A stretch of DNA of 64,000 bases from a phage. The stretch lies in sequence record PV357171.2, one strand, 5' to 3'. Below, piece by piece: positions 46,380-62,609 of the stretch. Position numbers and translations under genes: made by a program. The notes under the pieces were generated by a model. It saw nothing but the letters and a program-made list of their open reading frames with translations, ran no database searches and was not told where the DNA came from. Within the stretch, counting starts at the first letter, position 1. The number at the start of each line of letters is the position of its first letter.

Positions 46380-46409
46380 CCTGGGTATGAAAATACTCGG
46401 GCCTTTTCT
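46380..46409 (+). terminator. rho-independent terminator with GAAA tetraloop
   Basis: 9-bp stem (two G-U pairs) CCTGGGTAT / ATACTCGGG, GAAA loop, then CCTTTTCT. Confidence 0.5.
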
Positions 46410-46424
46410 ATCAGAAAATTTTAT

Positions 46425-46453
46425 TTGCCTAATGACAGATAATAAAGTAGAAT
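46425..46453 (+). promoter_or_regulatory. candidate promoter (TTGCCT, 17 bp, TAGAAT) upstream of nrdA
   Basis: Hexamers with 17-bp spacer; weaker match than the main family. Confidence 0.35.
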
Positions 46454-46491
46454 ATTCCTTAAATCCTGATAACTATAAAAAGGAAAGCCAA

Positions 46492-48822
46492 ATGAGCCAT
46501 CGCATTGAAAAAGTAATTAAACGTGACGGTACTGTAGAAGACTTTGCTCCTGAAAAACTCAATGGTTGGGCAGAGTATGGTTGCAAAACAGTTGATGTAA
46601 GTTGGTCAGCCATTACTATGGCTGCTCAAAAAACTCTGCCTAAGGGGGTTGTAGATTCCGACACTCTGATGGACGCATTAATTAAAGCTGCTGAAAGTCT
46701 TATCAAAGATAACCCAGCATACGATGTGCCAGCAAAGGAATTACGTCTTGCGCAAATGCGTAAACGCCTTTACGACTCTTTCGAACCACCTTCTCTACGC
46801 TTCTTCCATGACCATATGGTTAGCGTAGGTGCATGGGAAGACATGAGTGCATGGATTACCGATGAGCAGTTCGAAGCTCTGAATCAGGTTATCGACCATG
46901 ATCGTGACCGTCTTTTTACTAGTGGTGGACTGAAACAGTTCTTTGATAAGTATTCCCGTCGTAACATAGCCACTGGTGAAATTTATGAAACTCCGCAGTT
47001 TGCCTACATGGGTATGGCAATGGCGATGTTATCTCAACCTAACTGGACAATTCTAGATGCAATCGACCTCTACAACGCAATGTCACTCCACAAAATCAAC
47101 GTTCCTACGCCGCCACTGGTTGGTCTGCGCTCTAGTGACCGTGGATTTGCTAGTTGCTGCCTCGTGGATTCCACTGACACGTTGGATTCAATCGACACCG
47201 CCGAGCACATCGTCTTCAAAATGGTCGCAGCCAGAGCGGGAATCGGGTATCATCTTGAAAGCCGATCAATTGCTGATCCGGTGCGAAATGGGGCATTCCC
47301 GCATTCCGGAAAACTGCCATATTATCGACACATTGACCGCTCAGTAAAGGCCAATACTCAGCAAACTCGTGGTGGTTCTGCCACAGTGTCTTATCCGTAC
47401 TTCGACCCTGAAATCATTCAATTGATGCAGGTTAAGCAACAACGTGCTACAGATGAGAATAAAATCGATAAGATGGATTATTCTCTGAGCTTCAACAATC
47501 TTTTGTTAAAACGTTATCTGAAAAATGAAGATATTACGCTAATGTCATACTTCTATGCTCCAGAAGTTCATGAAGCGTTTTATAGTGATGACGAGGCTAA
47601 ATTTGAAGAAATCTATGTGGCAGCGGAGAAACGTGTGGCATCTCTTACAAAGATCGACCATGAAGGAAAAACAGTTCCAGCAGCTCCTAAAGTCTCTGCA
47701 AAAGAAATCCTAGATACTTGGCTACGTATCCGAATGGAAACAGGACGTATGTATGCCCACCACATCGGGGAATCTAATCGTCACGGTAACTTCCTTGATC
47801 CGATCCGTATGACAAACCTTTGTGTTGAAATTACTCAGCCTACGCGCCCGTTCCACCACATTACAGAGTTGTATAAGACAAAAGAACAACTTGATCAAAT
47901 GAAGCCGGAGGATATTGGTGAAGTATCTCTGTGTAACTTAGGTGGTGTTGTACTTGGACGCATGGAATCTCTGGCTGAGTGGGAAAAAACTTGCTACATC
48001 CTCCTGAAATTCGTTGATACAATTATTGAAATTCAGGATTACCCATTCCCAACTATGGAATATACGGCTAAGAAACGTCGTAATGTTGGTATTGGTCTGA
48101 TGAACGCAGCAGGTGCAATGGCAGCAGAAGGTCTGGCTTACGAAGGTATTGAAGCACGTAACTGGATTCATCGTGAAGCTGAAAAATTGTCCTACTTCCT
48201 GCATAAAGCCTCTGTACGTCTAGCCAAAGAGCAAGGTGCATGTGAGTGGTTTGATCGTACTAAACCATCTAAAGGAATTCTGGTAATCGACACGTACAAG
48301 AAAACTGTTGATGAACTGGTATCCGTAGGTCTAGAAATGGATTGGGAGTCTCTGCGTGCAGATATTCTGAAATACGGTATGCGTAACTCTGTTCTGACTG
48401 CGCAGATGCCGGGAGAAAGTTCTTCCGTTCTATTAGGGGTTACTAACTCTATTGAACCACCTCGTAAGATTGTATCTATCAAGGGTAGTGCAGTGAATAA
48501 AGTAATTGCAATTGCTCCAGGTGCAACCGACTGGGAAACGTTAATGAGCTATAAACTGGCTTATGATATTGATCGCACTGAGTGGATCAAGTGGAATGCC
48601 GTTTACCAAAAATTCTTGAGTCAGTCATCAAGTTTCCAGATGTATTATGATTACTCTAAATTCGAGAATGAAATCATCCCTGGCCCAGTAGTAATTCGTG
48701 ATTTTATGACTGCGGTTAAGTATGGCATAAAAACCTGGTATTATGCTAACTTTAACACTGCGAATGGTGGAGGAGCTGGTGAGGAAGCAGCGGGTTGTGC
48801 TTCTGGTGGTTGCCAGTTATAA
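46492..48822 (+). CDS. nrdA: ribonucleoside-diphosphate reductase large subunit (class Ia)
   Basis: ATP-cone N-terminus, active-site NLCVEI, C-terminal Cys pair (CASGGC); ATG at 46492 after AAAGGAAAG. Confidence 0.85.
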   Translation: MSHRIEKVIKRDGTVEDFAPEKLNGWAEYGCKTVDVSWSAITMAAQKTLPKGVVDSDTLMDALIKAAESLIKDNPAYDVPAKELRLAQMRKRLYDSFEPPSLRFFHDHMVSVGAWEDMSAWITDEQFEALNQVIDHDRDRLFTSGGLKQFFDKYSRRNIATGEIYETPQFAYMGMAMAMLSQPNWTILDAIDLYNAMSLHKINVPTPPLVGLRSSDRGFASCCLVDSTDTLDSIDTAEHIVFKMVAARAGIGYHLESRSIADPVRNGAFPHSGKLPYYRHIDRSVKANTQQTRGGSATVSYPYFDPEIIQLMQVKQQRATDENKIDKMDYSLSFNNLLLKRYLKNEDITLMSYFYAPEVHEAFYSDDEAKFEEIYVAAEKRVASLTKIDHEGKTVPAAPKVSAKEILDTWLRIRMETGRMYAHHIGESNRHGNFLDPIRMTNLCVEITQPTRPFHHITELYKTKEQLDQMKPEDIGEVSLCNLGGVVLGRMESLAEWEKTCYILLKFVDTIIEIQDYPFPTMEYTAKKRRNVGIGLMNAAGAMAAEGLAYEGIEARNWIHREAEKLSYFLHKASVRLAKEQGACEWFDRTKPSKGILVIDTYKKTVDELVSVGLEMDWESLRADILKYGMRNSVLTAQMPGESSSVLLGVTNSIEPPRKIVSIKGSAVNKVIAIAPGATDWETLMSYKLAYDIDRTEWIKWNAVYQKFLSQSSSFQMYYDYSKFENEIIPGPVVIRDFMTAVKYGIKTWYYANFNTANGGGAGEEAAGCASGGCQL

Positions 48823-48830
48823 TAAAAACA

Positions 48831-48858
48831 AGGAGATCTTCGGGTCTCCTTTTTCTTT
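48831..48858 (+). terminator. rho-independent terminator with UUCG tetraloop
   Basis: AGGAGATC-TTCG-GGTCTCCT followed by TTTTCTTT. Confidence 0.7.
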
Positions 48859-48868
48859 GAAATTTTAC

Positions 48869-48897
48869 TTGCTAATCGCTACCTGATTTGCTATAAT
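48869..48897 (+). promoter_or_regulatory. early promoter for HNH gene between nrdA and nrdB
   Basis: TTGCTA, 17 bp, TATAAT. Confidence 0.6.
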
Positions 48898-48903
48898 ATC
48901 TAT

Positions 48904-49401
48904 ATGAAATTAACACAGAGTAGATTAAAAGAGCTAATCTCCTATGACCCTGAAACTGGCGAATTTACCTGGCTCCCAAGAAAAACTTTAGCAAAGCATT
49001 TATGGAATGCTAAAGCAGGAACCTACGATAAATTAGGGTATCTTCGTATAAAAGTTGAAGGAGTTCAATATTTAGCTCATCGCCTAGCCTTCTTGTATAT
49101 GACTGGAGAAATACCGGAAGGAAAAATCGACCATAAAGATACTAATCCGTCTAATTGTGCCTGGGATAATCTCCGTGAAGCCACGAGTTCTCAAAATTCT
49201 ATGAACTCGTGTGCAAGATCGGATAACCAGCTTGGAATGAAAAATATTCGTGTAAAAGGCACTTCATTTCAGGTTAGGATAGGCAAAGACGGCAAATCTT
49301 ATACAAAAACTTTTAAAACCCTAGAAGAAGCTATAGAATGGAGAGACACCAAACTACTAGAACTTCATGGGGACTTTGCAAACAACGGAGAAGCTAAATG
49401 A
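48904..49401 (+). CDS. HNH homing endonuclease inserted between nrdA and nrdB
   Basis: GYLRIKVEGVQYLAHRLAFLYMTGEIPEGKIDHKDTNPSNCAWDNLRE motif. Confidence 0.7.
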   Translation: MKLTQSRLKELISYDPETGEFTWLPRKTLAKHLWNAKAGTYDKLGYLRIKVEGVQYLAHRLAFLYMTGEIPEGKIDHKDTNPSNCAWDNLREATSSQNSMNSCARSDNQLGMKNIRVKGTSFQVRIGKDGKSYTKTFKTLEEAIEWRDTKLLELHGDFANNGEAK

Positions 49402-50543
49402 CTACTTTACTTAACTTAGAATGGGATCATACTAACGCTGACCTTTTCCTGGGAGATTCTCTTGGTATCGCAGACTATGTTCGTGTTGCTCATCCCGAGC
49501 TAGAACGACTCGCCCTACTGCAGAGGAGCCAGTTTTGGACTGAGACAGAAATCAGTTTAGAAGCTGATAAAAAGCAGTGGGGTAATCTCCCGCGTGAAAT
49601 TCAGGAAATTACACTCCTGAACTTAGCATGGCAAACTCAAACTGATTCCTTTATCAGTCGTGCTCCTGAAGCAGCTATTATGCCACTTGTAAGTCGCCCA
49701 GAATTGGAAGGTATGCTCAAGCAGTGGAGCTACTTCGAAGATCTGCATAGCCGTGCATATAGTAATATTATTCGTAATGTGCTGACTGATCCAGCAGAAT
49801 TTATTGATTCTGTAACCAAAAACCAGGAAGCATTCGCACGCATCGCTGATTCTGTTGAGCTATTTGATGAGCTATATCAGTTAGGTCAGTATTTCCTAGC
49901 AGTACGTGATCATCGTGGCGATAATACTTACCCAGAAACCGAGTTTCCTGAAGTTAAACGTGAAACTCAGGCTAAGCTATTAGACGCTTACTTTGCAATC
50001 TACGGTCTGGAAGCAATGCAGTTTTACGCATCCTTTGCATGTACCTTTGCATTAGCGGAGAACGATATTCTGCAAGGTATTGCTAAAAACCTGCAATTAA
50101 TCGCTAAAGATGAAGCTCTGCACACTCAGATGTCCAAAGCAATCATCCAGATTATGTTTCAGCAATTTGACAAAGATCTGGTAGATGAAGCAGTGGCTAA
50201 AGCACCAGCACAGCTCCTGAAAACTCTGAAAACTGAAATTGAATGGGGTCATTTCATTTTCAAAGGTCGTAGTCTGATTGGTTTAAATGCAGAACTTCTA
50301 GAAGAATATCTGTATTTTGTGGGACGTAATGCATTTATGCACATCGGTGTAGAATGGCCTAGTCATTTACCAGTAATCACCAAAAACCCTATTCCGTGGA
50401 TCATGAACTGGTTGGATACCACTTCTTTACAGCCTGCTCCACAAGAAATCCAGATTGGTGCAGCATATCGTGTAGGTCAAGTCACCGAAACCTCTACTGA
50501 TACTCTGAAAGATCTGGGTAATGAATTTGGAGATTTCTTATGA
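49398..50543 (+). CDS. nrdB: ribonucleoside-diphosphate reductase small subunit
   Basis: Di-iron ligand helices (E..H pairs) and C-terminal acidic tail; follows nrdA. Confidence 0.8.
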   Translation: MTTLLNLEWDHTNADLFLGDSLGIADYVRVAHPELERLALLQRSQFWTETEISLEADKKQWGNLPREIQEITLLNLAWQTQTDSFISRAPEAAIMPLVSRPELEGMLKQWSYFEDLHSRAYSNIIRNVLTDPAEFIDSVTKNQEAFARIADSVELFDELYQLGQYFLAVRDHRGDNTYPETEFPEVKRETQAKLLDAYFAIYGLEAMQFYASFACTFALAENDILQGIAKNLQLIAKDEALHTQMSKAIIQIMFQQFDKDLVDEAVAKAPAQLLKTLKTEIEWGHFIFKGRSLIGLNAELLEEYLYFVGRNAFMHIGVEWPSHLPVITKNPIPWIMNWLDTTSLQPAPQEIQIGAAYRVGQVTETSTDTLKDLGNEFGDFL

Positions 50544-51073
50544 TTACAGCAATGTATGCAGTTGGGCCGAATGGGGAGTTCGGCCTCCGCGGTAAACTTC
50601 CATGGGGTTCCTTCAAAGAAGAACTAGATGCTTTCTATTCTCAACTGGACGTGTTGAATCCAGATAACATCATCATTGGTGCGGGTACTTATTTAGCACT
50701 TCCAGAAGTTGTTCGGCAACGTATGATTGGAGAATCAGACCTCTTTATTCGTGCGGATCGTCCTCTGCCTGATGATATTAAACAGGGTATCTATACCCCA
50801 ATTTCAAAGATTGGGGATACATTACCTACATTCTTAAAAGATCAGCAAACAGTAGTTCTAGGCGGTGCAACATTACTGTACGAAATGTATATTCATGGGC
50901 ATATTGAAAGCGCTTTTGTATCCACAATCTTTAGTAATCAAAAACTAGAGGCAGATGTACATCTGGATAATACGATTCTAGATTACAACTATGAATCTAC
51001 TCGTTTAGTTTACGCAACTGGCGCAAACAGTGATAACAGCCTGCGATTTGTACAGGAATTGGTTACTTATTAA
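50540..51073 (+). CDS. dihydrofolate reductase
   Basis: N-terminal IxAM..N..IG...LPW motif of DHFR; 177 aa; beside thymidylate synthase. Confidence 0.7.
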
Positions 51074-51927
51074 TGGATCAGTATATCGAAGTTGGAAAAC
51101 GTATTCTATCAGAGGGTCAGTGGGTAACGAATCCCAGAACAGGGGTTCGTTGCCTCACCATTATTAACGCAGATTTTACTTTTAATGTAGGTGCAGGTGA
51201 ATTTCCACTTATTACTACCCGTAAGGCGTTTGCAAAACAAGCAATAATGGAAATGATTGGGTATCTACGTGGGTATGATTCAGCAGCACAATTCCGCGCT
51301 ATTGGTGTTAACACATGGAATGCTAATGCAAATGAAAACTTAGCTTGGCTAGACAATCCATACCGTAAAGGTGAGGATGATATGGGACGAGTCTATGGTG
51401 TTCAAGGACGTCAGTGGACTAATTCCGATGGTCTTATGTTTGACCAACTAGCCAAGATTTATCATAACCTGAAGAAGGGCATTGATGATCGTGGGGAAAT
51501 TCTAACGTTCTGGAATCCTGGAGAGTTCTCGAAAGGTTGCTTACGTCCATGTATGCACACTCATCAGTTCTCTATTTTGGGGGATACATTATACCTGAAC
51601 TCTTTCCAGAGATCTAATGACTTCCTGTTAGGCCAAGTATTTAACATGGTTCAGTGCTACACGCTTCTAGCATTAATGGCACAGATTACAGGCCTTAAAC
51701 CAGGGATTGCACGCCAGAAGATTATCAATCTTCATATCTATGAGGATCAGTATAATGTTTTGATGGAGCATAAGCAATTCGATCGTGAACCTTTTGCACC
51801 TCCTACTCTAGAAATCAACCCAAATATCCGAACTCTAGAGGATGTATTGACCTGGGTAAGCAAGGATGACTTTACTGTTCGTGGTTACGAGCACCACCCT
51901 GCTATTGCATATCCATTCACTGTGTAA
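51073..51927 (+). CDS. thyA: thymidylate synthase
   Basis: Active-site region [10 protein letters not shown] and conserved ThyA blocks; 284 aa, uninterrupted. Confidence 0.8.
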
Positions 51928-51944
51928 TTCAAATAAAATATTAC

Positions 51945-51973
51945 TTGCTTGATGTCTAAATTTATAATATAAT
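51945..51973 (+). promoter_or_regulatory. early promoter
   Basis: TTGCTT, 17 bp, TATAAT. Confidence 0.55.
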
Positions 51974-52006
51974 ATTTCCTATATGTATATTATAGGGGAT
52001 TTACTT

Positions 52007-52561
52007 ATGATTATAAAAGAAGGATGGACAAAAGAGTCCGCACGAGCTAGATTTATATACAACCCTGATACAGGGGAGATTTTTAACAGAGTAAATAGCG
52101 GACGTGCTAGAAAAGGAGAATTAGCCGGGTATATTGATAAATCTACGGGGTATGTTAGACTAGTATTATCTGGTAAAAGGATTAAAGGACATCAGCTAGC
52201 CTTCTTATATATGGAAGGCTATATACCTGATACCATAGACCATATTAATAGAATAAAATCAGATAATAAATGGACTAATCTAAGGGAATCATCGGCTCAA
52301 GAAAATGCTAGAAATATTAGGGCAAGAAGTAAATCGGGCTATTTAGGTGTTGGTTGGTATAAGCCAACCCAAAACTGGTGTGTTTATACTAAGGATAAAG
52401 ATGGAGTCCAAGTTAACGGAGGCTACTTTGCATACAAAGAACTAGAGTTAGCAGTTCAAAAGGCTAATGAACTTCGCTTACAGTTACATGGAGAAAACGC
52501 TGTTATAGAAGCTTTTGATTCCACAAAACCACTTCCCACATTAGAGGATCTTAATAAATGA
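52007..52561 (+). CDS. HNH homing endonuclease
   Basis: GYVRLVLSGKRIKGHQLAFLYMEGYIPDTIDHINRIKSDNKWTNLRE; ATG at 52007. Confidence 0.7.
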   Translation: MIIKEGWTKESARARFIYNPDTGEIFNRVNSGRARKGELAGYIDKSTGYVRLVLSGKRIKGHQLAFLYMEGYIPDTIDHINRIKSDNKWTNLRESSAQENARNIRARSKSGYLGVGWYKPTQNWCVYTKDKDGVQVNGGYFAYKELELAVQKANELRLQLHGENAVIEAFDSTKPLPTLEDLNK

Positions 52562-53037
52562 GTACATTCCACGTTTACACAGATGGTGCTTGTAAGTCTA
52601 ATCCGGGTTTAGGTGCTTGGGGATTTATTGTCTATGATGATAATGATGATCGTTTAGGTTCTAAATCTGGCTATAACCCTAAAACCACAAATAACGAGAT
52701 GGAACTCACGGCTATTGTAGAGGCTCTTCGCTGGTCTGTTAAAAAAGATAATAGACCAATTGCTATCTATACTGATTCTGCTTATTGCAAAAATGGTATG
52801 GAAAGTTGGATGTTTTCTTGGCAAAGGAAAGGCTGGAAGAAAGCAGATGGTGAAGTTCCTCTTAATCTAGAACTTTGGCAGGAAGCATTTAAATTAACAC
52901 AGCAGTATATCAACTTTCATAATACTAATCCTACCTTTATTAAGGTTAAAGGACATTCTGGTATTAGTGGTAATGAAGCTGTAGACGCCTTATGTAATAC
53001 AGTTATTACTGAAGCTGAAATGGCTGAGATGTTATAA
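52558..53037 (+). CDS. ribonuclease H
   Basis: YTDGAC...G.GAWG, TNNEMEL, YTDS motifs of RNase H1. Confidence 0.75.
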   Translation: MSTFHVYTDGACKSNPGLGAWGFIVYDDNDDRLGSKSGYNPKTTNNEMELTAIVEALRWSVKKDNRPIAIYTDSAYCKNGMESWMFSWQRKGWKKADGEVPLNLELWQEAFKLTQQYINFHNTNPTFIKVKGHSGISGNEAVDALCNTVITEAEMAEML

Positions 53038-53054
53038 ATAAATTAAAAATTTTC

Positions 53055-53083
53055 TTGCTTAAAGCCCTCTAATTTAGTATAAT
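53055..53083 (+). promoter_or_regulatory. early promoter with palindrome arm in its spacer
   Basis: TTGCTT, 17 bp, TATAAT; spacer AAAGCCCTC is the inverted repeat of GAGGGCTTT at 53102-53110. Confidence 0.6.
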
Positions 53084-53110
53084 ATTCGTATTGAAAGTGA
53101 GGAGGGCTTT

Positions 53111-53389
53111 ATGCGAATTTATAACTCAAATTCATTAGGATTTAAACCATTGAGAAAACGTGCACAATCACCTCGTCAAATAAGAAAGGCTAATATTGGT
53201 GAGCCAGAGACACGCCTTCCACCTCCTCCAGAACAACGTTTAGTTTATCTGGACGAAGAATTAGCTGAACGCGAAAGAAAAGCTCAAGAAGAGATTGAGC
53301 GTAAGAAAATGTGTACTGCTCCAGCGTATAATAAAGGGGCGTATCAATACGTCTCAGATGCCGAACAAGCTAAGATGGTTGGTAGATAA
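53111..53389 (+). CDS. hypothetical protein
   Basis: 92-aa ORF. Confidence 0.4.
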   Translation: MRIYNSNSLGFKPLRKRAQSPRQIRKANIGEPETRLPPPPEQRLVYLDEELAERERKAQEEIERKKMCTAPAYNKGAYQYVSDAEQAKMVGR

Positions 53390-53405
53390 TTTTTAAAAAA
53401 TTCAT

Positions 53406-53434
53406 TTGCTAAACGCTTCAAATTCTTGTATAAT
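53406..53434 (+). promoter_or_regulatory. early promoter
   Basis: TTGCTA, 17 bp, TATAATATACTTCATAAATT. Confidence 0.65.
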
Positions 53435-53472
53435 ATACTTCATAAATTGATAAACAAAAAGGAAAACAAATA

Positions 53473-53988
53473 ATGGCTAAGCAGAAAAACGCAAAAACTC
53501 AAGCAGCTCCGGCAGTTAAAACTTTCCCGAAGACTGAGGCTAATCGCAAAGCTCGGCTGGAACGTCACCTGCGTAAGCATCCTACCGATGCTCAGGCTGC
53601 GCAAGCACTGAATAATCCGGCTCCGATTCGTAAGAAGCCTAAAGCTAAAAATGCCACCCGTAAATCCTACAAAATGGTTATGTATGTAGAAAATTACGGC
53701 CACAAATCTGTCCCAGTTTCCCTGAGCTTCAACGCTGGAGCTGAATTGTTCTCTCGTAATGGTATGTCTATGAAAGACTATGAGAAGGCAGTTAACCAGA
53801 AGCGTAAACCAACAGCAGATGTATTGCGTGATACTCGTGGACAGTTTGGTTCTGTTAAGCCAAATATCTTTGGCGTAGAGTATAGTAAAGATAATGTTCG
53901 TGCTCTGTGTTACGGTGTAGGCATTAAGTTCACGGGTGATTCTGCTCGTAAATCTGCTAAACCAGCTCGTAAACGTAAAGCGAAGTAA
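53473..53988 (+). CDS. hypothetical basic protein
   Basis: 171-aa Lys/Arg/Ala-rich ORF. Confidence 0.4.
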   Translation: MAKQKNAKTQAAPAVKTFPKTEANRKARLERHLRKHPTDAQAAQALNNPAPIRKKPKAKNATRKSYKMVMYVENYGHKSVPVSLSFNAGAELFSRNGMSMKDYEKAVNQKRKPTADVLRDTRGQFGSVKPNIFGVEYSKDNVRALCYGVGIKFTGDSARKSAKPARKRKAK

Positions 53989-54052
53989 TAGATAAATAGG
54001 GGCAGAAGCCCCTACAATCTACTAATTCTCTAACTAATCAAGGATATTTTTT

Positions 54053-54268
54053 ATGTTCTCTAAGAAACCACGTTCCGTTACTGAAATCGTTGCTTCCTTT
54101 ACCACTATCACTGATGAGCTTCAAGCTCGTATTGAGGCTGATCAAAAAATTGCGGCGGATATTCAGAAACAGCAGGAAGAACTCGCTTTAAAGTTGGCTG
54201 AAACCAACAAGAGTGAAAAATCTGCCCAAACTATTATGGAAAATATTCTTAAACTGCTGGGCGAGTAA
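54053..54268 (+). CDS. hypothetical protein
   Basis: 71-aa ORF flanked by GGGGC-NNNN-GCCCC tetraloop hairpins. Confidence 0.35.
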   Translation: MFSKKPRSVTEIVASFTTITDELQARIEADQKIAADIQKQQEELALKLAETNKSEKSAQTIMENILKLLGE

Positions 54269-54310
54269 TTTAAGTTAGGGGGCGAAAGCCCCTCTTAGTT
54301 TGGAGAAACT

Positions 54311-54547
54311 ATGCGTAATTTTGTAGCAAAGAATGATTTTAACCGTGCTAGCACTCATAAGTCCGCTAGAGATTATACACGACTTTCTAGTCACGAGGTA
54401 ATGGATACCTGTTATGAAGAGCTGGAAGGTAGCTGGGATGAATGGCCCGACTTCTCTATGGAAGAGAACTGGGATGTCAGTGAGGATATGCTTCCTGGTT
54501 TTAAAGACCCCAAGAAGTGGGAGTCTATTAAAGAGACAGCTCTTTAA
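54311..54547 (+). CDS. hypothetical protein
   Basis: 78-aa acidic ORF. Confidence 0.35.
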   Translation: MRNFVAKNDFNRASTHKSARDYTRLSSHEVMDTCYEELEGSWDEWPDFSMEENWDVSEDMLPGFKDPKKWESIKETAL

Positions 54548-54575
54548 TAGTTTTCTACACAGTAAAGGATAAGTT

Positions 54576-55277
54576 ATGAAAGTAAAACCATTTGGTATGC
54601 TAGATATTGAATCTCTAGGAACTCCAGGAGATTGTGGTACTACTCATATCGTAATGCCTTCTTTCGCTTTTGTGGCTATGCATGGGGTTGATAAAGACCC
54701 TGATCTAGTATTTGTTACTTTGGATGTGCAGGATCAGCTTAATTCTGGTGCCAAAGTTACAGCATCTACTCTAGCATTCTGGATGGATCAAGCTAAAAAT
54801 AGCCCGTCTGCTATCCACATTATGGAAGCTATGAAGGAACGTAATCCAAAACTGATTGCCTTCCAAAATGGTAAACATCATTGCACTAATAAATTAGGCT
54901 CAAACTATGCTGCCTTCTCTATGGCTCAAAATATTATGGAGTTGGCTCTAGGCGAAAATGCTTTGTATTATGGCAATGGCCCAGAGTTTGATATGACTAT
55001 CTACTCTGCAAATACGTTCCATGCTGGAACCAATGAAGAGGTAGTTCCGTGGAAATTCTGGAATTTGGGCAATGTTCGATCTCTTCGTAATCTCTGGATG
55101 CAAGCTGGATACAGTTATAAGGCTCTAGAGACCGAAGGTATTAGCTGGGCAATAGCTAAAATGGAGAAGATGGACACTATTCGTTATGGGATATATCCGG
55201 TTAAGCACGACCCAGCATTCGATGCCTTAGTTGAGAGCTATTGTGTTGCGGCTATGATCGAAAAAATGAAAATTTGA
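54576..55277 (+). CDS. putative DEDDh-type 3'-5' exonuclease
   Basis: Exo I-like MLDIESLG near N-terminus and H-x4-D (HDPAFDA) near C-terminus. Confidence 0.4.
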   Translation: MKVKPFGMLDIESLGTPGDCGTTHIVMPSFAFVAMHGVDKDPDLVFVTLDVQDQLNSGAKVTASTLAFWMDQAKNSPSAIHIMEAMKERNPKLIAFQNGKHHCTNKLGSNYAAFSMAQNIMELALGENALYYGNGPEFDMTIYSANTFHAGTNEEVVPWKFWNLGNVRSLRNLWMQAGYSYKALETEGISWAIAKMEKMDTIRYGIYPVKHDPAFDALVESYCVAAMIEKMKI

Positions 55278-55278
55278 T

Positions 55279-55307
55279 TTGCTTCCGGCTCCAAAATTCT
55301 GTATAAT
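55279..55307 (+). promoter_or_regulatory. early promoter
   Basis: TTGCTT, 17 bp, TATAATATATTCATAAATTTGAGA. Confidence 0.65.
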
Positions 55308-55347
55308 ATATTCATAAATTTGAGAAAACAATAAAAGGAAAACAAAT

Positions 55348-55530
55348 ATGCCAGTATCTAAAAATGTTCGTAAAAATGGTAAGAAAGCTACTCGTAATCT
55401 GGGTATCCGTCGTATGGCTGAACGTCAATCAGGTATCCAGAAAATCTTTGATCTGTTAAATCGTGCTAATCCTAAAATTGATAACAGTAAAGATACTGTT
55501 CTGCGTACCTTACTGGCAATGGGTCTGTAA
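55348..55530 (+). CDS. hypothetical protein
   Basis: 60-aa basic ORF 20 nt after AAAGGAAAAC. Confidence 0.35.
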   Translation: MPVSKNVRKNGKKATRNLGIRRMAERQSGIQKIFDLLNRANPKIDNSKDTVLRTLLAMGL

Positions 55531-55582
55531 TAGACCAACTTTAAACAAATTCAAATCTTAAACTTCATATAAGGAAGAAACA

Positions 55583-56221
55583 ATGACTACTCGTATTTCT
55601 AAAACTCGCGATCTGGCAACTATCAAATCTCTGGAAGCTAAAATCCGTAAAGCTACTGAACAACAGCTTCTGATCGCTGTTGGTGAAGGTAAGGATAAAA
55701 ATAAGGTTGTAGTTGGCGCTGCAATCGAAGTAGACGATCTGTCTGCTCGTATTAAGGCAGATTTCCAATCTCTCCTAGATATGATGTCCCAGCGTGATCG
55801 TATCAAAGCTGCTCTGATTAAGAGCAATGCGGAAACAGTAGTTGAGATTGGTTCTCGTAAAATGACTGTTGCAGAAGCAATTGAAGCTAAGCGTTCTATG
55901 GAGCTTAAAGCTCAGTTGCTGGCTAATATGCGTAAGCAGTTCCATGCCGCTACGGTTAAGTTTAATACGCAGAAAGCACAGTTTGATGCTAAATATGAGC
56001 GTTTGCAGGATAGCATGGCTACCCGCGATAAGAAAACTTCCGAAGATGAAGTTAAAATGCAGCTCAACCTGCTGGAACTCAAGAATACTCCATTCTTGAT
56101 TGATCCGCTGGAGCTGGAGAAGCTGATCAAGCAGCACGACGAAGAATATCAGGACTTTGCAACTAATGTTGACTTTGTTCTGTCTGAGTCTAATGCCTCT
56201 ACTTTCATTGAAGTAGAGTAA
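55583..56221 (+). CDS. hypothetical protein
   Basis: 212-aa ORF. Confidence 0.4.
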   Translation: MTTRISKTRDLATIKSLEAKIRKATEQQLLIAVGEGKDKNKVVVGAAIEVDDLSARIKADFQSLLDMMSQRDRIKAALIKSNAETVVEIGSRKMTVAEAIEAKRSMELKAQLLANMRKQFHAATVKFNTQKAQFDAKYERLQDSMATRDKKTSEDEVKMQLNLLELKNTPFLIDPLELEKLIKQHDEEYQDFATNVDFVLSESNASTFIEVE

Positions 56222-56604
56222 TAATTTAAAAGCTAGTAAATCGGTAGACGAAAGCCCAAGCATCTTACCTCGCAGCAGCGGTTGAAATACGAGGTTAAAT
56301 AAGACCGCTGACCATACTATAAAGTATAATCTATTGGAGATTATGTTTATTACATCAGACATTTAATCTGACACGTAAAAACAAAGAGTCGTTGATATTA
56401 CCGACACAACTTCAAAGATCAACATTTAAGTATGAAAGCTGAAAAGTTTAAAGAACTCAAACTTCTAAACTTCTAAAGCTAAAAGATGCAAAGTATTCGT
56501 TGATGATTCAAACCCTAGATCAAAGGTACATGGCTCATAAGATATGGCCTGTGGCGCCTCTAGGCTGTTTATCGGTTTACTAGTTTCACAATTTAAAAAT
56601 GTAT

Positions 56605-56633
56605 TTGCTAATCTACTAAATTATATGTATAAT
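56605..56633 (+). promoter_or_regulatory. early promoter
   Basis: TTGCTA, 17 bp, TATAATATATTT. Confidence 0.65.
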
Positions 56634-56663
56634 ATATTTTTAAATTGATGAAACGAGGCTATT

Positions 56664-57485
56664 ATGGGTAAATTACAAAAACAAATACTACCACATATAG
56701 ATTATATTCGAGAAATTATAGAGTATAATCCTTATACTGGTAAATTATTTTATAAGCCTAATAAATACAAGAATAAAACTTGGCACACCCTATATGCTGG
56801 GAGAGAAATATGTAGTAAGAACTCTGATGGGTATATCAGAGTTAGTTTGCTCTTAGATAATAAACCCACAATTATTTATGGACACCGAATAGCGTGGTTG
56901 CTCCATTATGGTGAAGAGCCTCCTTATATGATCGACCATATAAATACCATACCGTGGGATAACAGAATTGTTAATCTAAGAGAGACAAATTTTAAGTTAA
57001 ATAGGATTAATACTAATAAAACCGTAGGTGTAGAACTCCTCCCCGAGGGTTTTGTGTATAGCATTACATTAGGTGGAAAGTTTTTCGTATCTCCTGGCTT
57101 CACCACTTTCGAACAAGCTAAAGGGGAAAGAGAAAAACTAGTAAATGGTTTATGTAATGCAGAAATTGGGAAGCAGACCAATATTCTAATAGACGATGTT
57201 AGAGATCTACCTGAAATGTCCATTATTTGTCGTACAGTTATAGGTGCGCTGGAACTATCAGATATGTTTAGTTTTACTGGTTCCTACCTATTTATGGACT
57301 CAGATCTAGGAGACCCAGAAGTACAAGGAAAAGACTTATTAGATTATATACTCTTTTTAGGTCAAAGACCTTTGAAAGTAGTTCTAGTAACATCCAACCC
57401 TGTTGACGCAGAGTACATGAGAGGTACTCTTACGTCTTATGGTTATCGAGAAAATCCCAATAGGTTAGAATATGACCTATTTTAA
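56664..57485 (+). CDS. HNH homing endonuclease with C-terminal extension
   Basis: GYIRVSLLLDNKPTIIYGHRIAWLLHYGEEPPYMIDHINTIPWDNRIVNLRE. Confidence 0.65.
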   Translation: MGKLQKQILPHIDYIREIIEYNPYTGKLFYKPNKYKNKTWHTLYAGREICSKNSDGYIRVSLLLDNKPTIIYGHRIAWLLHYGEEPPYMIDHINTIPWDNRIVNLRETNFKLNRINTNKTVGVELLPEGFVYSITLGGKFFVSPGFTTFEQAKGEREKLVNGLCNAEIGKQTNILIDDVRDLPEMSIICRTVIGALELSDMFSFTGSYLFMDSDLGDPEVQGKDLLDYILFLGQRPLKVVLVTSNPVDAEYMRGTLTSYGYRENPNRLEYDLF

Positions 57486-57497
57486 GGAGTAAAAAGA

Positions 57498-57947
57498 ATG
57501 AAGGCAGCTTTGCTTTTAGTAGCTGCCCTTACCTTCAGCTTTAGTAGTCAGGCATCGCACGATGCAAAAGAAATAGATTGCATTGCTAAAAATATCTATT
57601 TTGAAAGTCGTGGTGAGGGCATAAATGGAATGATGGCGATTGCACATGTTACTAAAAACCGTGTAAACTCCGGTAAATTCCCAGATTCCTACTGTAAAGT
57701 AGTATATCAGTCTACCCAGTTCTCTTGGGTATCTAAGAGACCAAAAGTTGATAAAACGGATGAGGCTTGGCAAACCGCTAAGAATTTAGCTAGAGTGATA
57801 TACTACGTTGATTTACCACAAGATCCAACACATGGAGCACTATACTTCCATAGTGGTAAAGATAAACCTTACTGGACAAAGAAGTTTAAGAAAACAACGA
57901 AGATTCAAGGCCATACGTTCTACAAGCCTGCGGTCACTAAAACTTAA
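57498..57947 (+). CDS. secreted SleB/CwlJ-like cell wall hydrolase
   Basis: Signal peptide MKAALLLVAALTFSFSSQA, then NIYFESRGEG...MMAIAHVTKNR block typical of the SleB/CwlJ (Hydrolase_2) family. Confidence 0.5.
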   Translation: MKAALLLVAALTFSFSSQASHDAKEIDCIAKNIYFESRGEGINGMMAIAHVTKNRVNSGKFPDSYCKVVYQSTQFSWVSKRPKVDKTDEAWQTAKNLARVIYYVDLPQDPTHGALYFHSGKDKPYWTKKFKKTTKIQGHTFYKPAVTKT

Positions 57948-57955
57948 AAATTTAT

Positions 57956-57984
57956 TTGCTTAAATACTTAAACTTCTGTATAAT
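57956..57984 (+). promoter_or_regulatory. early promoter
   Basis: TTGCTT, 17 bp, TATAATACTTTCATAAATTAATGAGAGGAAG. Confidence 0.65.
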
Positions 57985-58015
57985 ACTTTCATAAATTAAT
58001 GAGAGGAAGCGAAAT

Positions 58016-58186
58016 ATGAAGAACTTGATCGTCATTGGTGTTAACACTCGCGGTATTCGTACTACGAAAACTATTAAAACTTCTAACGTTGCTGAAATCA
58101 CTACGAACCCTAAAAAGTTTGATTTCGCCAAAGTCTCAGCAGTTATGACGGAGCAATCTTTTAACCAAGCGTTAGGACTGAAATAA
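58016..58186 (+). CDS. small hypothetical protein (56 aa), below ORF-track threshold
   Basis: ATG 7 nt after GAGAGGAAG and directly behind a family promoter; stop overlaps next ATG (TAATG). Confidence 0.45.
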   Translation: MKNLIVIGVNTRGIRTTKTIKTSNVAEITTNPKKFDFAKVSAVMTEQSFNQALGLK

Positions 58187-58629
58187 TGGAAGAGAATATT
58201 TTAGATGTTTTGCGTAGAGCTTTGCAGGATTCTAAGTTTAATGGTTCTGATAAAGAAGTCGCTAAAAGCTATCAGACCATAATCGGGGATCTTCAGCGTA
58301 TTGATAAAGATTTCATCACTTCTGAACAATTTGTGTCTTATCTCAAAGCTCAACTAAAAAGCATTAACCAGATGAAAGCTAAACTTCATGGTCAAGATCT
58401 TGATAGTTATAGCTTGCAGTCCGCTCAGTATGAATACATTCTAAATAAGTGGTTGCAGGAGTATCTGCCTCCTCAGTTATCTGATACTGAGATTCGTAAA
58501 TACTTTGCAGAATTAGTTAAGCTAAACCCTGGAATTACAAAAGGTATGCTGATGAAAGCGATTAAGGAAGAATTTCCTGGGCGTTATGATGGTGGTACTG
58601 CTGCTCAGATTGCTGGCGAATTTAATTAA
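58186..58629 (+). CDS. hypothetical protein
   Basis: 147-aa ORF. Confidence 0.45.
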   Translation: MEENILDVLRRALQDSKFNGSDKEVAKSYQTIIGDLQRIDKDFITSEQFVSYLKAQLKSINQMKAKLHGQDLDSYSLQSAQYEYILNKWLQEYLPPQLSDTEIRKYFAELVKLNPGITKGMLMKAIKEEFPGRYDGGTAAQIAGEFN

Positions 58630-58637
58630 AAATTTAC

Positions 58638-58666
58638 TTGCTAAATGCTTATAAATTCTGTATAAT
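58638..58666 (+). promoter_or_regulatory. early promoter driving ORF-free RNA region
   Basis: TTGCTA, 17 bp, TATAATATATTCATAAATT. Confidence 0.65.
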
Positions 58667-59463
58667 ATATTCATAAATTAGGGAACAGCGAGCCGATTAC
58701 GCTGAGTGCAGAATCCCAACCGGAGCGCATTGAATAGAGTCGGTGGGTTAGTTGTAAAACTAGTACACAGGGGGCGGCAATCCCGGTTAGTGGCTAGAAC
58801 GTGTAAAATGAGGCGTCTGAAACCTCTCCCCTAAACTCTTCTCTAATTTATAAATAGTGGGGTGTGGAAATCACTTATGTAGTAACACTGCCGTCCTAGT
58901 ATAATTGGTATTATCAAGCCGTAACTGGTGGAAGATGTAGGTTCGAATCCTACGGTCGGTAAGAACTGGATAACTGATGCTTTTAACGTAAAAGCTTCCG
59001 AGGTTAGTTGCGCACTGCCTAAACCACGCGGTAGTTGGTTCCAGACTAACCAACCAGTCTGCTGAATAGTTTTATTACGATTTAACTATGCCCAGGCTAA
59101 AGAAGAACTTTAGAAGGTATTCTAGGATAGTGAAGTTCTTTCTCCATATCGGAGTAGTTTTTCAAGCTATCCACAAAGTGGGAAATGCTGACATGAGAGA
59201 TGTCACTAATGGTGCACAATAGCACAGGTAATTCGCGATAACCCCTGTTGAGTAGCAGCAAAAGGCGGGAAGTCATGACCCCAAGCCTAACCGAGTCCTC
59301 AATATACCGCAGGACATAACCACTAAGTCCCCCTGACTTAAACTGGAAAATAATAGACGTTACTGTATTTTGTCTTGAAATACTTAATGAGTGAGACTTA
59401 TGACTCTCCCGGTATCGTCTGTATTTTTAAGAGTTTTTACGAGAGTTCTTAAAAATACTTAAA

Positions 59464-59535
59464 CGGGGTGTAGTCTAAGGGAGAGGCAGGAGTCTTCTAA
59501 ATTCCTTTATGCAGGTTCGAATCCTGTCACCTCGG
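59464..59535 (+). tRNA. tRNA-Arg (anticodon UCU)
   Basis: Hand-folded cloverleaf: acceptor CGGGGTG / CACCTCG, D-stem GTCT / AGGC, anticodon stem GGAGT / ATTCC with loop CTTCTAA, T-arm GCAGG-TTCGAAT-CCTGT, CCA encoded. Confidence 0.75.
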
Positions 59536-59572
59536 CCAATTTTATTAACTGTAGCTAAAACAAAGGAAATAT

Positions 59573-60520
59573 ATGTTTAATACTAAAAATATGAAAGAAC
59601 TGACTTCTGAGCAGAAAGTAATTCGTACTATTAAACGTTGGGGTATTGGTGCTGTAGTTGGTTTAGCAGGTTTAATCCTAGCTTTTAATTCATATACTGT
59701 TGTTCAAGACGGTACTGTTAAAACCCAGACTTTCCTGGGTAAAGTTGACCCTAGCCCAGTATTACCCGGCTTTCATATTGTAAATCCTTTTGCTTCTTTC
59801 GATACTTTTAGTACTAAAGATATTGCCCTAAAATTAGATAAACTTCAGGTTCCTAGCCAGGATAAGTTTAAATCCACTGTTGACCTGACTGTTATGTTGC
59901 AGTTTGATGGTTCTAAGGCACCAATTAACCGTATTAACGCAGGTACTCAGGATCAGGCGTTAGACAAGTATGTAACTGAAAAATTACTGTCTACTATTCG
60001 TGAGTTTGGTAAGTCTGTACCTAAAGCACAAGATTTGTTTGATGCTAAAATTCAGGCTCAATTGCAAACTGCAATTCAACAGGAAGTTGAAGAGTATGCA
60101 CGCCCATATGGTTACACAGTTAAGCAGGTATTCCTTCAGGATATTACTTTGCCACCGGTAATCATGGAACAGGTACAGAATACCAAAGTTCGTGAAGAGC
60201 AAGTTAATGCTGCGAAAGCTGAACTGGCCCGCGTTGAACAAGAAGCGCAGCAAAAGGTTAAACAAGCAGAAGCAGACCGTGAAGCTCGCAACAACCAAGC
60301 TATTGCTAATGAACGTGACGCAGATGCTAAACTGTACGCAGCTAAGAAAGAAGCTGAAGCTAACGCCGCATTGCAACGTACCATTACTCCTGAGATGATT
60401 CGCTGGAAGCAACTGGAAGTTGAAATGCTTCGTGCTGAAAAATACCAAGGTGGTGTACCGCAAACAGTAGTGGGAACTGGTTACGATGGCCAGATGATCA
60501 TGGATATGCGTAATAAGTAA
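59573..60520 (+). CDS. SPFH/band-7 (HflK/C-like) domain membrane protein
   Basis: N-terminal TM helix, then SPFH-type core and Ala/Glu/Gln-rich coiled coil; 315 aa. Confidence 0.5.
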   Translation: MFNTKNMKELTSEQKVIRTIKRWGIGAVVGLAGLILAFNSYTVVQDGTVKTQTFLGKVDPSPVLPGFHIVNPFASFDTFSTKDIALKLDKLQVPSQDKFKSTVDLTVMLQFDGSKAPINRINAGTQDQALDKYVTEKLLSTIREFGKSVPKAQDLFDAKIQAQLQTAIQQEVEEYARPYGYTVKQVFLQDITLPPVIMEQVQNTKVREEQVNAAKAELARVEQEAQQKVKQAEADREARNNQAIANERDADAKLYAAKKEAEANAALQRTITPEMIRWKQLEVEMLRAEKYQGGVPQTVVGTGYDGQMIMDMRNK

Positions 60521-60544
60521 TATCCGCATGTAATCTCTGAAGTA

Positions 60545-60582
60545 AGCCCTGTGTTCCCTGGAGAGCGCAGGGCTTTTCTGTA
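60545..60582 (+). terminator. rho-independent terminator
   Basis: Stem AGCCCTG / CAGGGCT with structured loop, then TTTTCTGTATTT. Confidence 0.55.
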
Positions 60583-60725
60583 TTTAAGGCAAAAGAAAAA
60601 GCCCATAAGTTATTCAACTAAGGTCTTTAGTATTTAATTCTTTAGAATCATATAATATTATTGCAGCAACAACGTGCTAACCTTAAGTGCCCTGCAATTT
60701 TCCTCTAAAAAGTTAAAAAATTCGA

Positions 60726-60754
60726 TTGCTTGAATGCTAAATTCTCTGTATAAT
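60726..60754 (+). promoter_or_regulatory. early promoter
   Basis: TTGCTT, 17 bp, TATAATATATTTATAAATTTGAGAGAGG. Confidence 0.65.
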
Positions 60755-60784
60755 ATATTTATAAATTTGAGAGAGGAATCAAAT

Positions 60785-61840
60785 ATGATTAAGACTGGTC
60801 TAGTAATTGGTAAGTTCGCACCATTAACGCGTGGTCATATTAACCTAATAAACACAGCAGCAACTATGTGTGAACGAGTTATTGTTGTAGTTAGTCATGA
60901 TAATCGTTGGCTGGATAAGCAGAACACACGTGATCAGGAAGTATTACAGTTAAAGAATCGACTTCGTTGGTTAGAACAAACTTACGCGGATATTGAGCAC
61001 ATTTCGGTAGAGTACATTATTGAAGATGATATTCCTGAATATCCGAATGGTTGGCCGGAATATGCTAGAATCCTTAATGAAAATTACGGACATTTGCCTG
61101 AGATCACCGTTTTCTCTAGCGAACTAGACTATGATGCAGAATATAAGAAATATCTGCCGAAGTTTGGTCATTATATTGTAGATTCTGATCGGACTCGTGT
61201 TCCAATCTCAGCTACAATGATTCGTAATGATCTTATGAAGTATTGGGAGTTTCTTCCTAGCTTAGTTCGTAAAGATTACGTGCGTAAGGTTGTAATCATT
61301 GGGACTGAAAGCTCGGGAAAGACTACTTTAACAAAATACCTTGCGAAGCTATACAACACTTCGTGGGTAGAAGAATATGGCCGAACGTATTGTGAAGTTG
61401 ATCTAGTTGGTAACGAAAATCTACTTACCAGTGAAGATTACAGTAAAATTGCGTTCAGACACAAAGAGCTAGAGTTTGAAGCAGAACGTACTGCAAATAA
61501 GATCATGTTTGTGGATACAAATGCTTTTATTACTGAGTTCTACCACAGACTTTATGAACATAGTAAGAACCCTGTGGTTACAGCAATTGCAAAAGTAGAA
61601 CATTACGATTTAGTAATTGTTCTAGCGCCTACTGTCAAGTGGGTAGATGATGATTTACGTATTAACTCCGATCGTTCAATTACTTCTGAACTGTTCGAGC
61701 AGATGAAGAAAGAATTTCCAAATCAGTTCCCTGAAGGGCGTACTGTTTACATCGACTCTCCGGACTACAAAGTTCGTATGGACGAAGCAGTAAACGCAGT
61801 AGACTGGCTGATTCATCACTTTAACGTTGGAGAGTTTTAA
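60785..61840 (+). CDS. nadR: NadR-like bifunctional NMN adenylyltransferase / ribosylnicotinamide kinase
   Basis: N-terminal GKFAPLTRGH (nucleotidyltransferase H/T-x-G-H) and C-terminal P-loop IGTESSGKTTL; ATG at 60785 after GAGAGG. Confidence 0.6.
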   Translation: MIKTGLVIGKFAPLTRGHINLINTAATMCERVIVVVSHDNRWLDKQNTRDQEVLQLKNRLRWLEQTYADIEHISVEYIIEDDIPEYPNGWPEYARILNENYGHLPEITVFSSELDYDAEYKKYLPKFGHYIVDSDRTRVPISATMIRNDLMKYWEFLPSLVRKDYVRKVVIIGTESSGKTTLTKYLAKLYNTSWVEEYGRTYCEVDLVGNENLLTSEDYSKIAFRHKELEFEAERTANKIMFVDTNAFITEFYHRLYEHSKNPVVTAIAKVEHYDLVIVLAPTVKWVDDDLRINSDRSITSELFEQMKKEFPNQFPEGRTVYIDSPDYKVRMDEAVNAVDWLIHHFNVGEF

Positions 61841-61841
61841 T

Positions 61842-62519
61842 ATGACTAACTATCTCGTAAATGACTTTAAAAACTGGAAACCTCTGGAATATCTGTGGCT
61901 GCTCATAGCGGTTGTCTTCATTAGTTTAGCAAACTATAATGGTACAGCTCTAGATTGGGCTACTGCAATAACCAATGTGGTTTGTGTTATTCTGGTTGCA
62001 AAAGGACGTGTTTCCAACTATATTTGGGGCTTAGTGGGTGTTCTTACATATGGTATTACAGCTTTAAACGCAGATCTTTATGGTAACGCTGCACTAAACC
62101 TGCTATACTACGTTCCTATGCAGTTTTATGGAATGTACTTATGGCATAAAAATAAACCAAGTAATCTGCCAGACGTTCCAACTAAGGTTCTGACTAAAGC
62201 TCAGGCTTTATTAACTCTTGGGATTCTAGCAGTAGCTACTCTAGGCTATGGCAGCTTCCTCGCTACCACAGCAGATCCGTTCCCAATGCTCGATGCATTT
62301 ACTGCGGTTGGTAGTGTAATTGCTATGTGGCTTATGGTCAAGCAGTATGCTGAACAATGGCTAATCTGGATTGCCATTAATATTGGTACTGTATACATTT
62401 GGTTTGTAACTGCTCAGTCTACAGGTGCTTCTTATGCAATCCTAGCAATGTGGCTGGTATTCTTTGGTAACTCTGTACTTGGAGCCTATAAAGGGTACTT
62501 TGTACGCGTTAACAAATAA
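61842..62519 (+). CDS. pnuC: PnuC-like nicotinamide riboside transporter
   Basis: About 226 aa, multiple predicted TM helices, Trp-rich motifs; immediately after NadR-like gene; ATG at 61842 after GGAGAG. Confidence 0.55.
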   Translation: MTNYLVNDFKNWKPLEYLWLLIAVVFISLANYNGTALDWATAITNVVCVILVAKGRVSNYIWGLVGVLTYGITALNADLYGNAALNLLYYVPMQFYGMYLWHKNKPSNLPDVPTKVLTKAQALLTLGILAVATLGYGSFLATTADPFPMLDAFTAVGSVIAMWLMVKQYAEQWLIWIAINIGTVYIWFVTAQSTGASYAILAMWLVFFGNSVLGAYKGYFVRVNK

Positions 62520-62526
62520 AATAGTT

Positions 62527-62552
62527 ATAGCCCTCAAAGCGAGGGCTATTAT
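62527..62552 (+). terminator. hairpin, terminator-like
   Basis: 9-bp stem ATAGCCCTC / GAGGGCTAT, loop AAAGC; weak U-run. Confidence 0.4.
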
Positions 62553-62566
62553 CCAGAAAATTTCAC

Positions 62567-62595: not shown

Positions 62596-62609
62596 ATATT
62601 TATAAATTC

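Follow-up and report, generated by a model that had tools for sequence, protein, structure and literature searches.

Short hairpins with GGGGC and GCCCC arms in the early operons of this T5-like phage are probably RNA stem-loops of the intrinsic-terminator type that would let part of transcription pass, and two of them, as direct repeats, would recombine to remove or restore a small gene. This account draws on the sequence, position and conservation of the hairpins, on compensatory changes in their stems, on their tails, on the absence of downstream promoters and on an exact insertion/deletion junction. At the level of prediction, the four hairpins considered here (hp1–hp4) were already known from terminator annotations: the T5 RefSeq record (NC_005859) lists the homologues of hp3 (76783–76805) and hp4 (64929–64948) as putative rho-independent terminators, and that of Escherichia phage HASG4 assigns putative terminators to precisely the 14-mers of hp1 and hp2 (dG −10.5 and −14.1). 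What appears to be new is that hp1 and hp2 form direct repeats around a 71-aa gene that has been repeatedly gained or lost.

The DNA analysed (the window, ~64 kb in all) comes from a T5-like phage (Demerecviridae, Markadamsvirinae) with 90–98% identity to Salmonella and Escherichia Tequintavirus genomes. Gene layout was assigned by synteny with oldekolle and T5. Late tail genes occupy position 1 to ~16.2 kb on the plus strand, an early replication block (dut, D15 ... D2, origin-binding protein, nrdD) runs from ~16.3 to 46 kb on the minus strand, and a second early block (nrdA/B, thy, rnh, small ORFs, tRNAs) extends from ~46.3 kb onward on the plus strand. Five plus-strand tRNA genes (58890–58961, 59464–59535, 62611–62700, 62710–62784 and 63356–63438) form part of the T5-type tRNA region; a whole-window Rfam scan at gathering thresholds matched these five tRNAs only and nothing at the hairpins.

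Terminator-type hairpins and their operons

The motif GGGGCNNNNGCCCC (GGGGC-N4-GCCCC) has three exact matches in the window, at 21393–21406, 53999–54012 and 54279–54292, whereas 100 shuffles that preserved dinucleotide content yielded none (mean 0.00, maximum 0). These coordinates bear out an earlier note on this DNA, which had reported identical 5-bp GC stems at three sites. All three copies are intergenic, in a window whose non-coding share is ~11% by a rough ORF map, and each begins 8–10 nt past a stop codon in the sense orientation, the placement expected of an intrinsic terminator. The same note placed the hairpins after short genes, which does not hold at 21393, where the preceding gene encodes the 257-aa SSB (D11). 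One might suppose that a GC-rich palindrome without function has recurred by chance, given that exact copies number only three and that two of these are related by descent through one duplication. The shuffles, the intergenic positions and the retention of hairpins in ~30 related genomes and several genera effectively refute this.

Stems of 5–8 bp and folding energies of −9 to −13 kcal/mol place hp1 to hp4 within the stem/loop range of intrinsic terminators, and the four differ chiefly in what follows the stem. On the minus strand, hp3 (AGAGGGGC-UUCG-GCCCCUUU; 21384–21409, core 21393–21406) lies between the SSB/D11 gene and the D12 gene. Its core reads GGGGCCGAAGCCCC, with a UUCG loop in minus-strand RNA, and it runs into the U-tract UUUCUUUUU (21384–21392; following sequence also written as CUUUUUAA), which has 7 U in 8. 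Also on the minus strand, hp4 (AGCCCC-UAUAU-GGGGCU, or AGCCCC-ATATA-GGGGCT on the plus strand; 32995–33023, hairpin 33007–33023) follows the T5.114 homologue and is succeeded by the U-tract UUUUGUGUAUUU, with 6 U in 8. On the plus strand, hp1 (UAGGGGC-AGAA-GCCCCUA; 53997–54014, core 53999–54012; dG −12.1, fold z −4.06) stands 8–10 nt past the stop codon of the DUF7022 gene, and its tail CAAUCUACUAAUU (also written as UACAAUCUAC) has no U-tract, with 3 U in 8. The plus-strand hp2 (GGGGGC-GAAA-GCCCCU; 54278–54293, core 54279–54292) stands 10 nt past the stop codon of the 71-aa gene; its weakly U-rich tail UCUUAGUUU (5 U in 8) leads into a Shine–Dalgarno (SD) sequence, GGAG, and the AUG at 54311.

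We scored each tail (nT, the U-tract score) and combined stem and tail in a d'Aubenton-Carafa-type score (d). Both hp3 (nT 4.05, d +23) and hp4 (nT 3.92, d +18) pass as terminators and compare with six other canonical terminators in the window (d +12 to +43), whereas hp2 (nT 2.21, d −8) and hp1 (nT 0.36–1.09, d −34 to −45) score much lower; ViennaRNA energies were combined here with a threshold from 1990, so the ranking alone is reliable. By these measures, hp3 and hp4 are predicted to have the form of canonical intrinsic terminators. The earlier claim that most of the hairpins lack a strong U-run is right for hp1 (nT 1.09) and in part for hp2, and fails for hp3 and hp4 once these are read on the minus strand; across the five hairpins it covered, it is wrong for two and right for one or two. 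Like the rho-independent terminators of E. coli and its phages, including those annotated in T5 (NC_005859), all four combine a GC-rich stem and a 4–5-nt loop with a position just past a stop codon, and hp3 and hp4 add a U-tract. They depart from that model in the missing tract of hp1, the weak tract of hp2 and the location of all four in operons with no downstream promoter.

Related hairpins had also been noted at 33008 and 29553. Both exist, the former as hp4 (33007–33023) and the latter at 29552–29578. The second is of another kind, since it overlaps the SD and AUG annotated for D6, and it falls outside the GGGGC-N4-GCCCC set. It is a 13-bp minus-strand hairpin (AGGGGAGGGGGC-UAU-GCUCCUUCCCCU, dG −21.5, then UUUUGCAUUU) with a U-rich tail, is identical in T5 and oldekolle, and encloses both the SD (GGAGG) and the AUG (29565) that the annotation gives to the D6 helicase gene. 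A second hairpin, GCACG-AAAG-CGUGC (29523–29536), and alternative start codons come after it. A Pfam scan of the D6 N-terminus, run as a test of the annotated start at 29565, returned no match. The structure would be either a terminator after D5, with the D6 start mis-annotated, or a hairpin that couples translation of D6 to that of D5.

The setting of hp1 and hp2 is defined by a plus-strand T5-type early promoter (53387–53436; TTGCTA-17-TATAAT at 53406–53434; repeat families D1/D2), the homologue of T5 P-H207. It is followed on the same strand by the DUF7022 gene (53473–53988, 171 aa, T5.089 homologue), hp1, the 71-aa gene, hp2, the T5.088 homologue (54311–54547, 78 aa, with a DUF7230-type N-terminus) and the T5.087 homologue (54576–55277, 233 aa, with an Rv2179c-like 3′–5′ exoribonuclease domain). 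T5-type early promoters make up a 50–62-nt repeat family with 12 copies in the 46–64 kb region (46406–63835), each a module of an A-rich upstream region, TTGCTA or TTGCTT, 17 nt, TATAAT and then the leader CATAAATT. No member of this family was found between 53436 and 55260, which places hp1 and hp2 inside one operon comprising the DUF7022, 71-aa, T5.088 and T5.087 homologues. The T5 annotation likewise has no promoter from the hp3 homologue to the bidirectional terminator after dut, nor from the hp4 homologue to T5.115. With no promoter downstream, expression of D12, D13, D14, D15 and dut, of T5.115 and of T5.088/087 needs read-through transcription, and hp1–hp4, all inside such operons, therefore cannot be efficient terminators.

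Several other assignments were considered and set aside. A promoter overlapping hp1 (TAGATA-18-TACAAT, 9/12 match) is a minor possibility, as 46 such matches were found against 50.8 expected from shuffles. An outer helix around hp1, which folding predicts as UAGAU/AUCUA, is broken in two relatives (L008 and L013). The hairpins contain no GCGC and do not fit the T5-annotated nick-site consensus Pu-GCGC, and stems of 5–8 bp are too short for RNase III sites. Elsewhere in the window, some early-promoter copies lie directly after terminator hairpins (48830–48899, and 42530–42554 on the minus strand), forming terminator-promoter composites that resemble the PeSL cassettes discussed below. Another hairpin, at 62527–62549 (AUAGCCCUC-AAAGC-GAGGGCUAU, 9 bp, dG −14.3), stands directly after the gene at 61842–62519 and directly before an early promoter, and it too is tail-less, with no U-tract on the plus strand.

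Conserved stems and changing loops

Comparison with 19–30 IMG/VR relatives per hairpin site showed the GGGGC/GCCCC cores to be unchanged throughout Tequintavirus. A core that never varies among close relatives offers no evidence of covariation, and we drew this evidence instead from the outer pairs and from more remote genera, in which sites were taken to be homologous on the basis of gene order. At the hp3 site, relatives carry GGGGAGC-UACG-GCUCCC or GGGAGC-CUAACA-AGCUCCC, followed every time by a U-tract, and at the hp4 site some carry GGAGAGC-UUCG-GCUCUCC. At the site after the DUF7022 gene, outer UA/AU pairs are swapped to AU/UA in Epseptimavirus-like loci; the stem is flipped in phage Eos (GCCCCGGC-UGAA-GUCGGGGC) and reads GGGGCG-GCAA-CGCCCC in Serratia phage Slocum. 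The site lacks a hairpin in Klebsiella phages (Roth49, L126/L127), whose genes overlap there, and an IMG/VR scan for more distant DUF7022 loci added only two Klebsiella-phage loci, both without a hairpin.

The loops, by contrast with the stems, are not conserved. Among relatives, the hp1 loop is GAAA in 5, TTCT in 5, AGAA in 3, GAGA in 2 and TTTA in 1; the hp2 loop is GAAA in 13, TTTC in 1 and GTAA in 1; and the hp3 loop is TTCG in 21 and CGAA in 1. The hairpins had been described as capped by stable tetraloops. In the window, the loops of hp2 (GAAA) and hp3 (UUCG) match the GNRA and UNCG types and that of hp1 (AGAA) matches neither; with the variation among relatives, the stress on tetraloop stability is not supported. 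Extra-stable C(UUCG)G and GNRA tetraloop hairpins were reportedly described in intercistronic regions of T4 by Tuerk et al. in 1988. The present hairpins resemble these in hp3, with C(UUCG)G, in hp2, with C(GAAA)G, and in their placement, as short GC stems that separate cistrons in a virulent coliphage; they differ in hp1, which is of neither type, and in relatives with UUCU, UUUC, UUUA or CGAA. These comparisons suggest that no strong selection acts on loop identity, and that it is the stem-loop, rather than a specific stable tetraloop, that is under selection.

Exact reverse-complement loops occur at all three sites (AGAA/TTCT, GAAA/TTTC and TTCG/CGAA), with stems unchanged and flanks near-identical, when the window is compared with L004, L005, L007, L012, L022, L041 and L118. 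Monttinen and Loytynoja (2022; PMC8794818) attributed exact loop inversions in hairpins to inter-strand template switching, and the inversions here, between near-identical relatives, appear to carry the same signature. Their study concerned rRNA and microRNA, in which such events were rare, whereas here they are found at all three sites within a few dozen genomes, a frequency that seems unusually high for so few genomes.

A gene unit bounded by hp1 and hp2

The window differs from T5 at this locus by exactly one repeat period of 280 bp. The corresponding plus-strand insertion/deletion unit (53999–54278) consists of one hairpin copy and the 71-aa gene (54053–54268, phrog_2380), with hp1 as its left and hp2 as its right direct repeat. 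T5, DT571/2, STyj5-1 and JNwz02 lack the unit, and each keeps one chimeric hairpin, a form counted in four genomes besides T5: the single T5 hairpin (...gaagtaatagataaaTAGGGGCGAAAGCCCCTcatattttggagaaactATGcgtaat) has a left flank like that of hp1, a right flank like that of hp2 and no 71-aa gene beside it. BLAST blocks between the window and T5 break at window positions 54013 and 54279 (T5 locus L023, 5434 and 5448) and have in common a 15-nt stretch of T5, the hairpin. Through this history the U-rich tail and SD of the ancestral site would have remained with hp2, leaving hp1 without a U-tract.

Among IMG/VR loci, the 71-aa gene is present in 16 of 24 and absent from the other 8, T5 among them. 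Judged by the flanking DUF7022 gene, no locus without the 71-aa gene is closer to another such locus than to one that carries it; presence and absence are thus phylogenetically intermixed, which implies repeated gain, loss or exchange of the gene. The link between hairpins and recombination rests on this single locus: comparison of the window with T5 and oldekolle revealed no other hairpin-bounded insertion or deletion, and most other indels against these genomes are accounted for by five HNH endonuclease genes and are not hairpin-bounded. These HNH_3 homing-endonuclease genes lie at 18087–18578, 34886–35344 and 38882–39397 on the minus strand and at 48904–49401 and 51983–52561 on the plus strand, and most of the five mark indel positions that separate the window genome from oldekolle and T5. 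One relative (L005, 1214–1485) has an extra small ORF between the 71-aa gene, which it overlaps at TAATATG, and hp2, its right boundary again lying beside the hairpin.

A similar arrangement occurs in T4-like phages. A tblastn search with the 71-aa protein (phrog_2380) matched 407 phage records, 34 of them below 60% identity; the four listed from the latter are ~177-kb, Straboviridae-sized genomes of Citrobacter, Enterobacter and Klebsiella phages, at 43–45% identity. In Citrobacter phage Miller (Pseudotevenvirus), GGGGC-GAAA-GCCCC stands 5 nt past the stop codon of the 71-aa homologue, and eight further T4-like loci have GGGGC-GAAA-GCCCC, GGGGCU-GAAA-AGCCCC or GGGGCU-AAAA-AGCCCC in the same position. 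The gene that comes next in Miller opens with MNNPVAKHDFNRASTH, and this stretch is homologous to the beginning of the T5.088 homologue, MRNFVAKNDFNRASTH (pair E = 1e-7; DUF7230 match). With these hairpins and this homologous gene start, the order 71-aa gene, hairpin, DUF7230-type gene is common to two phage families. Six of the T4-like loci carry an additional, inserted ORF of ~250 bp directly 3′ of the hairpin.

The DUF7230 N-terminal peptide (MxNxVAKxDFNRASTH) heads several unrelated small-protein families (phrog_4586, 5724, 1359, 15229 and 255) and is kept beside the hairpin in both T5-like and T4-like phages (window 54311–54360; L091 991–1040), with roughly 75% nucleotide identity by a hand count over the first ~50 nt. 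This N-terminal segment may serve both groups of phages as a recombination joint that lies within coding sequence. The T5.088 and T5.087 homologues (54311–54547 and 54576–55277) both match one PHROG, phrog_255, and in Klebsiella phage Roth49 (L024, 1988–2992) one 334-aa ORF corresponds to the pair. The split found in T5-like phages falls at an AT-rich hairpin (54525–54550), which overlaps the stop codon and carries the tail UUUUCU.

A close known parallel is the PeSL (promoter-early stem-loop) cassette of T4-type phages (Comeau et al. 2014; PMC4122927). As described by Arbiol et al. (2010; PMC2839356), PeSL stem-loops often have polyG followed by polyC, are combined with early promoters and flank ORFans, and ORF192 of RB49 lies between two PeSL copies at a site where phi1 has a single chimeric copy. 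The intergenic hp1 and hp2 share the polyG/polyC stem type and flank the 71-aa gene as stem-loops flank an ORFan; they also show the same contrast between two copies around a gene and a single chimeric copy in relatives (T5, DT571/2, STyj5-1 and JNwz02), and the 71-aa homologues, followed by the same GGGGC-GAAA-GCCCC hairpin, occur in a Pseudotevenvirus, a member of the genus of RB49 and phi1. On the other hand, the defining sigma-70 early promoter is absent here, the repeat is 14–16 nt rather than ~100 nt, and only one locus in the window shows the pattern, for which reasons we liken hp1/hp2 to the PeSL stem-loop and do not file them as PeSL. It is conceivable, though we think it rather unlikely, that the stem-loop is a promoter-less relative of PeSL, a shared recombination joint that moves small genes within T5-like phages and between Demerecviridae and Straboviridae phages. 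The shared order of the 71-aa gene, GGGGC-GAAA-GCCCC and the DUF7230-type gene start in both families, and the indels that begin at the hairpin in both, are what suggest it. Miller nevertheless contains six GGGGC-N3-6-GCCCC hairpins in 50 kb (128200–178171, L101), three of them exactly GGGGCGAAAGCCCC and most with U-tracts. The GGGGC/GCCCC stem-loop thus looks like a recurrent terminator design in Pseudotevenvirus, and part of the coincidence between T5-like and T4-like loci could be convergent.

Leaky termination and competing explanations

From the features described above, we infer partial termination, read-through, the efficiency of termination, 3′-end protection and the recombination mechanism, as follows. 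Host RNA polymerase, which transcribes the phage, would encounter terminator-type stem-loops 8–10 nt past stop codons in the early operons. At hp3 and hp4, canonical in form and probably leaky given that no promoter follows either, attenuation would yield more of the upstream product (for example, SSB) than of downstream gene products. In hp2 the design would recur in a weaker form, one that is conserved immediately before the T5.088-type gene, and hp1 would be a second copy of the hp2 hairpin, parted from the U-rich tail by the 280-bp unit with the 71-aa gene. So parted, hp1 would be limited to pausing RNA polymerase or to shielding RNA 3′ ends. Recombination between the 14–16-nt direct repeats of hp1 and hp2 would remove or restore the 71-aa gene. 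All four hairpins would act as leaky attenuators that tune expression ratios and may also shield upstream RNA from 3′ exonucleases. In the literature searched, we found no usable transcript 3′-end or terminator mapping for any T5-like phage.

For the plus-strand hairpins, a role without termination is possible, and we keep it as a tentative alternative that narrows the suggestion of the earlier note to these two: hp1 and hp2 would be RNA stability or processing elements that block 3′–5′ exonucleases (PNPase, RNase II or the phage Rv2179c-like exoribonuclease encoded just downstream) and set stable 3′ ends of upstream cistrons after read-through transcripts are trimmed. A U-tract is essentially absent at hp1 and poor at hp2, both hairpins sit inside an operon that requires read-through, their stems, at −9 to −12 kcal/mol, are strong for such short helices, and the T4-like hairpin after the 71-aa homologue often has an A-rich, U-poor tail (e.g. 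AAUAAGGAAAAUAAU), all of which would suit such elements. Protection of this kind is, however, compatible with weak termination; moreover, T5 (UCAUAUUUU), Slocum (UUAUCCUU) and Eos (UUAGUUU) have U-rich tails at the hp2 position, as a weak terminator predicts, and the terminator prediction of the HASG4 authors accepts both hp1 and hp2. It is improbable, in our judgement, that hp2 instead belongs to the gene that follows, as a 5′ element of the T5.088/T5.087 (DUF7230/exoribonuclease-like) gene acting as a translational operator or a post-processing 5′ stabiliser. A GC hairpin does lie 18–30 nt before the T5.088-type start regardless of the upstream gene, which is DUF7022 in T5, Slocum and Eos and the 71-aa gene in the window and T4-like phages, and in T5, Slocum and the window precisely 18 nt separate the hairpin from the AUG. 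Yet the hairpin is missing from Roth49 and L126/L127, whose genes overlap, an extra ORF separates it from the T5.088-type gene in some T4-like loci, and loops that vary and invert argue against recognition by a sequence-specific protein.

The palindromes might also act as DNA, either by binding a dimeric phage protein or by serving in site-specific recombination or cruciform formation. Close relatives keep the perfectly symmetric arms unchanged and differ in the loops, and the hairpin is the exact indel junction, as such a site would have it. We regard this as very improbable, because distant relatives keep the pairing and not the sequence (the flipped stem and the different GC stems), all copies are sense-oriented just past stop codons, the U-tracts of hp3 and hp4 are strand-specific, and no recombinase is associated with the hairpin sites. 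Leaky terminator-type stem-loops, two of which would serve as recombining repeats, remain the reading that we favor.

As regulatory elements, such hairpins are routine, and their interest here is that they would show how T5-like early operons can grade expression with no extra promoters, for example by providing abundant SSB ahead of catalytic nucleases. The 280-bp unit would be a concrete case in which short terminator hairpins serve as the microhomology through which T5-like phages gain and lose accessory genes, and for phage engineering the hairpin sites may offer natural, tolerated insertion points. More broadly, a gene-plus-hairpin module shared by T5-like and T4-like phages is suggested; if it is real, the PeSL idea would reach beyond T4-type genomes.
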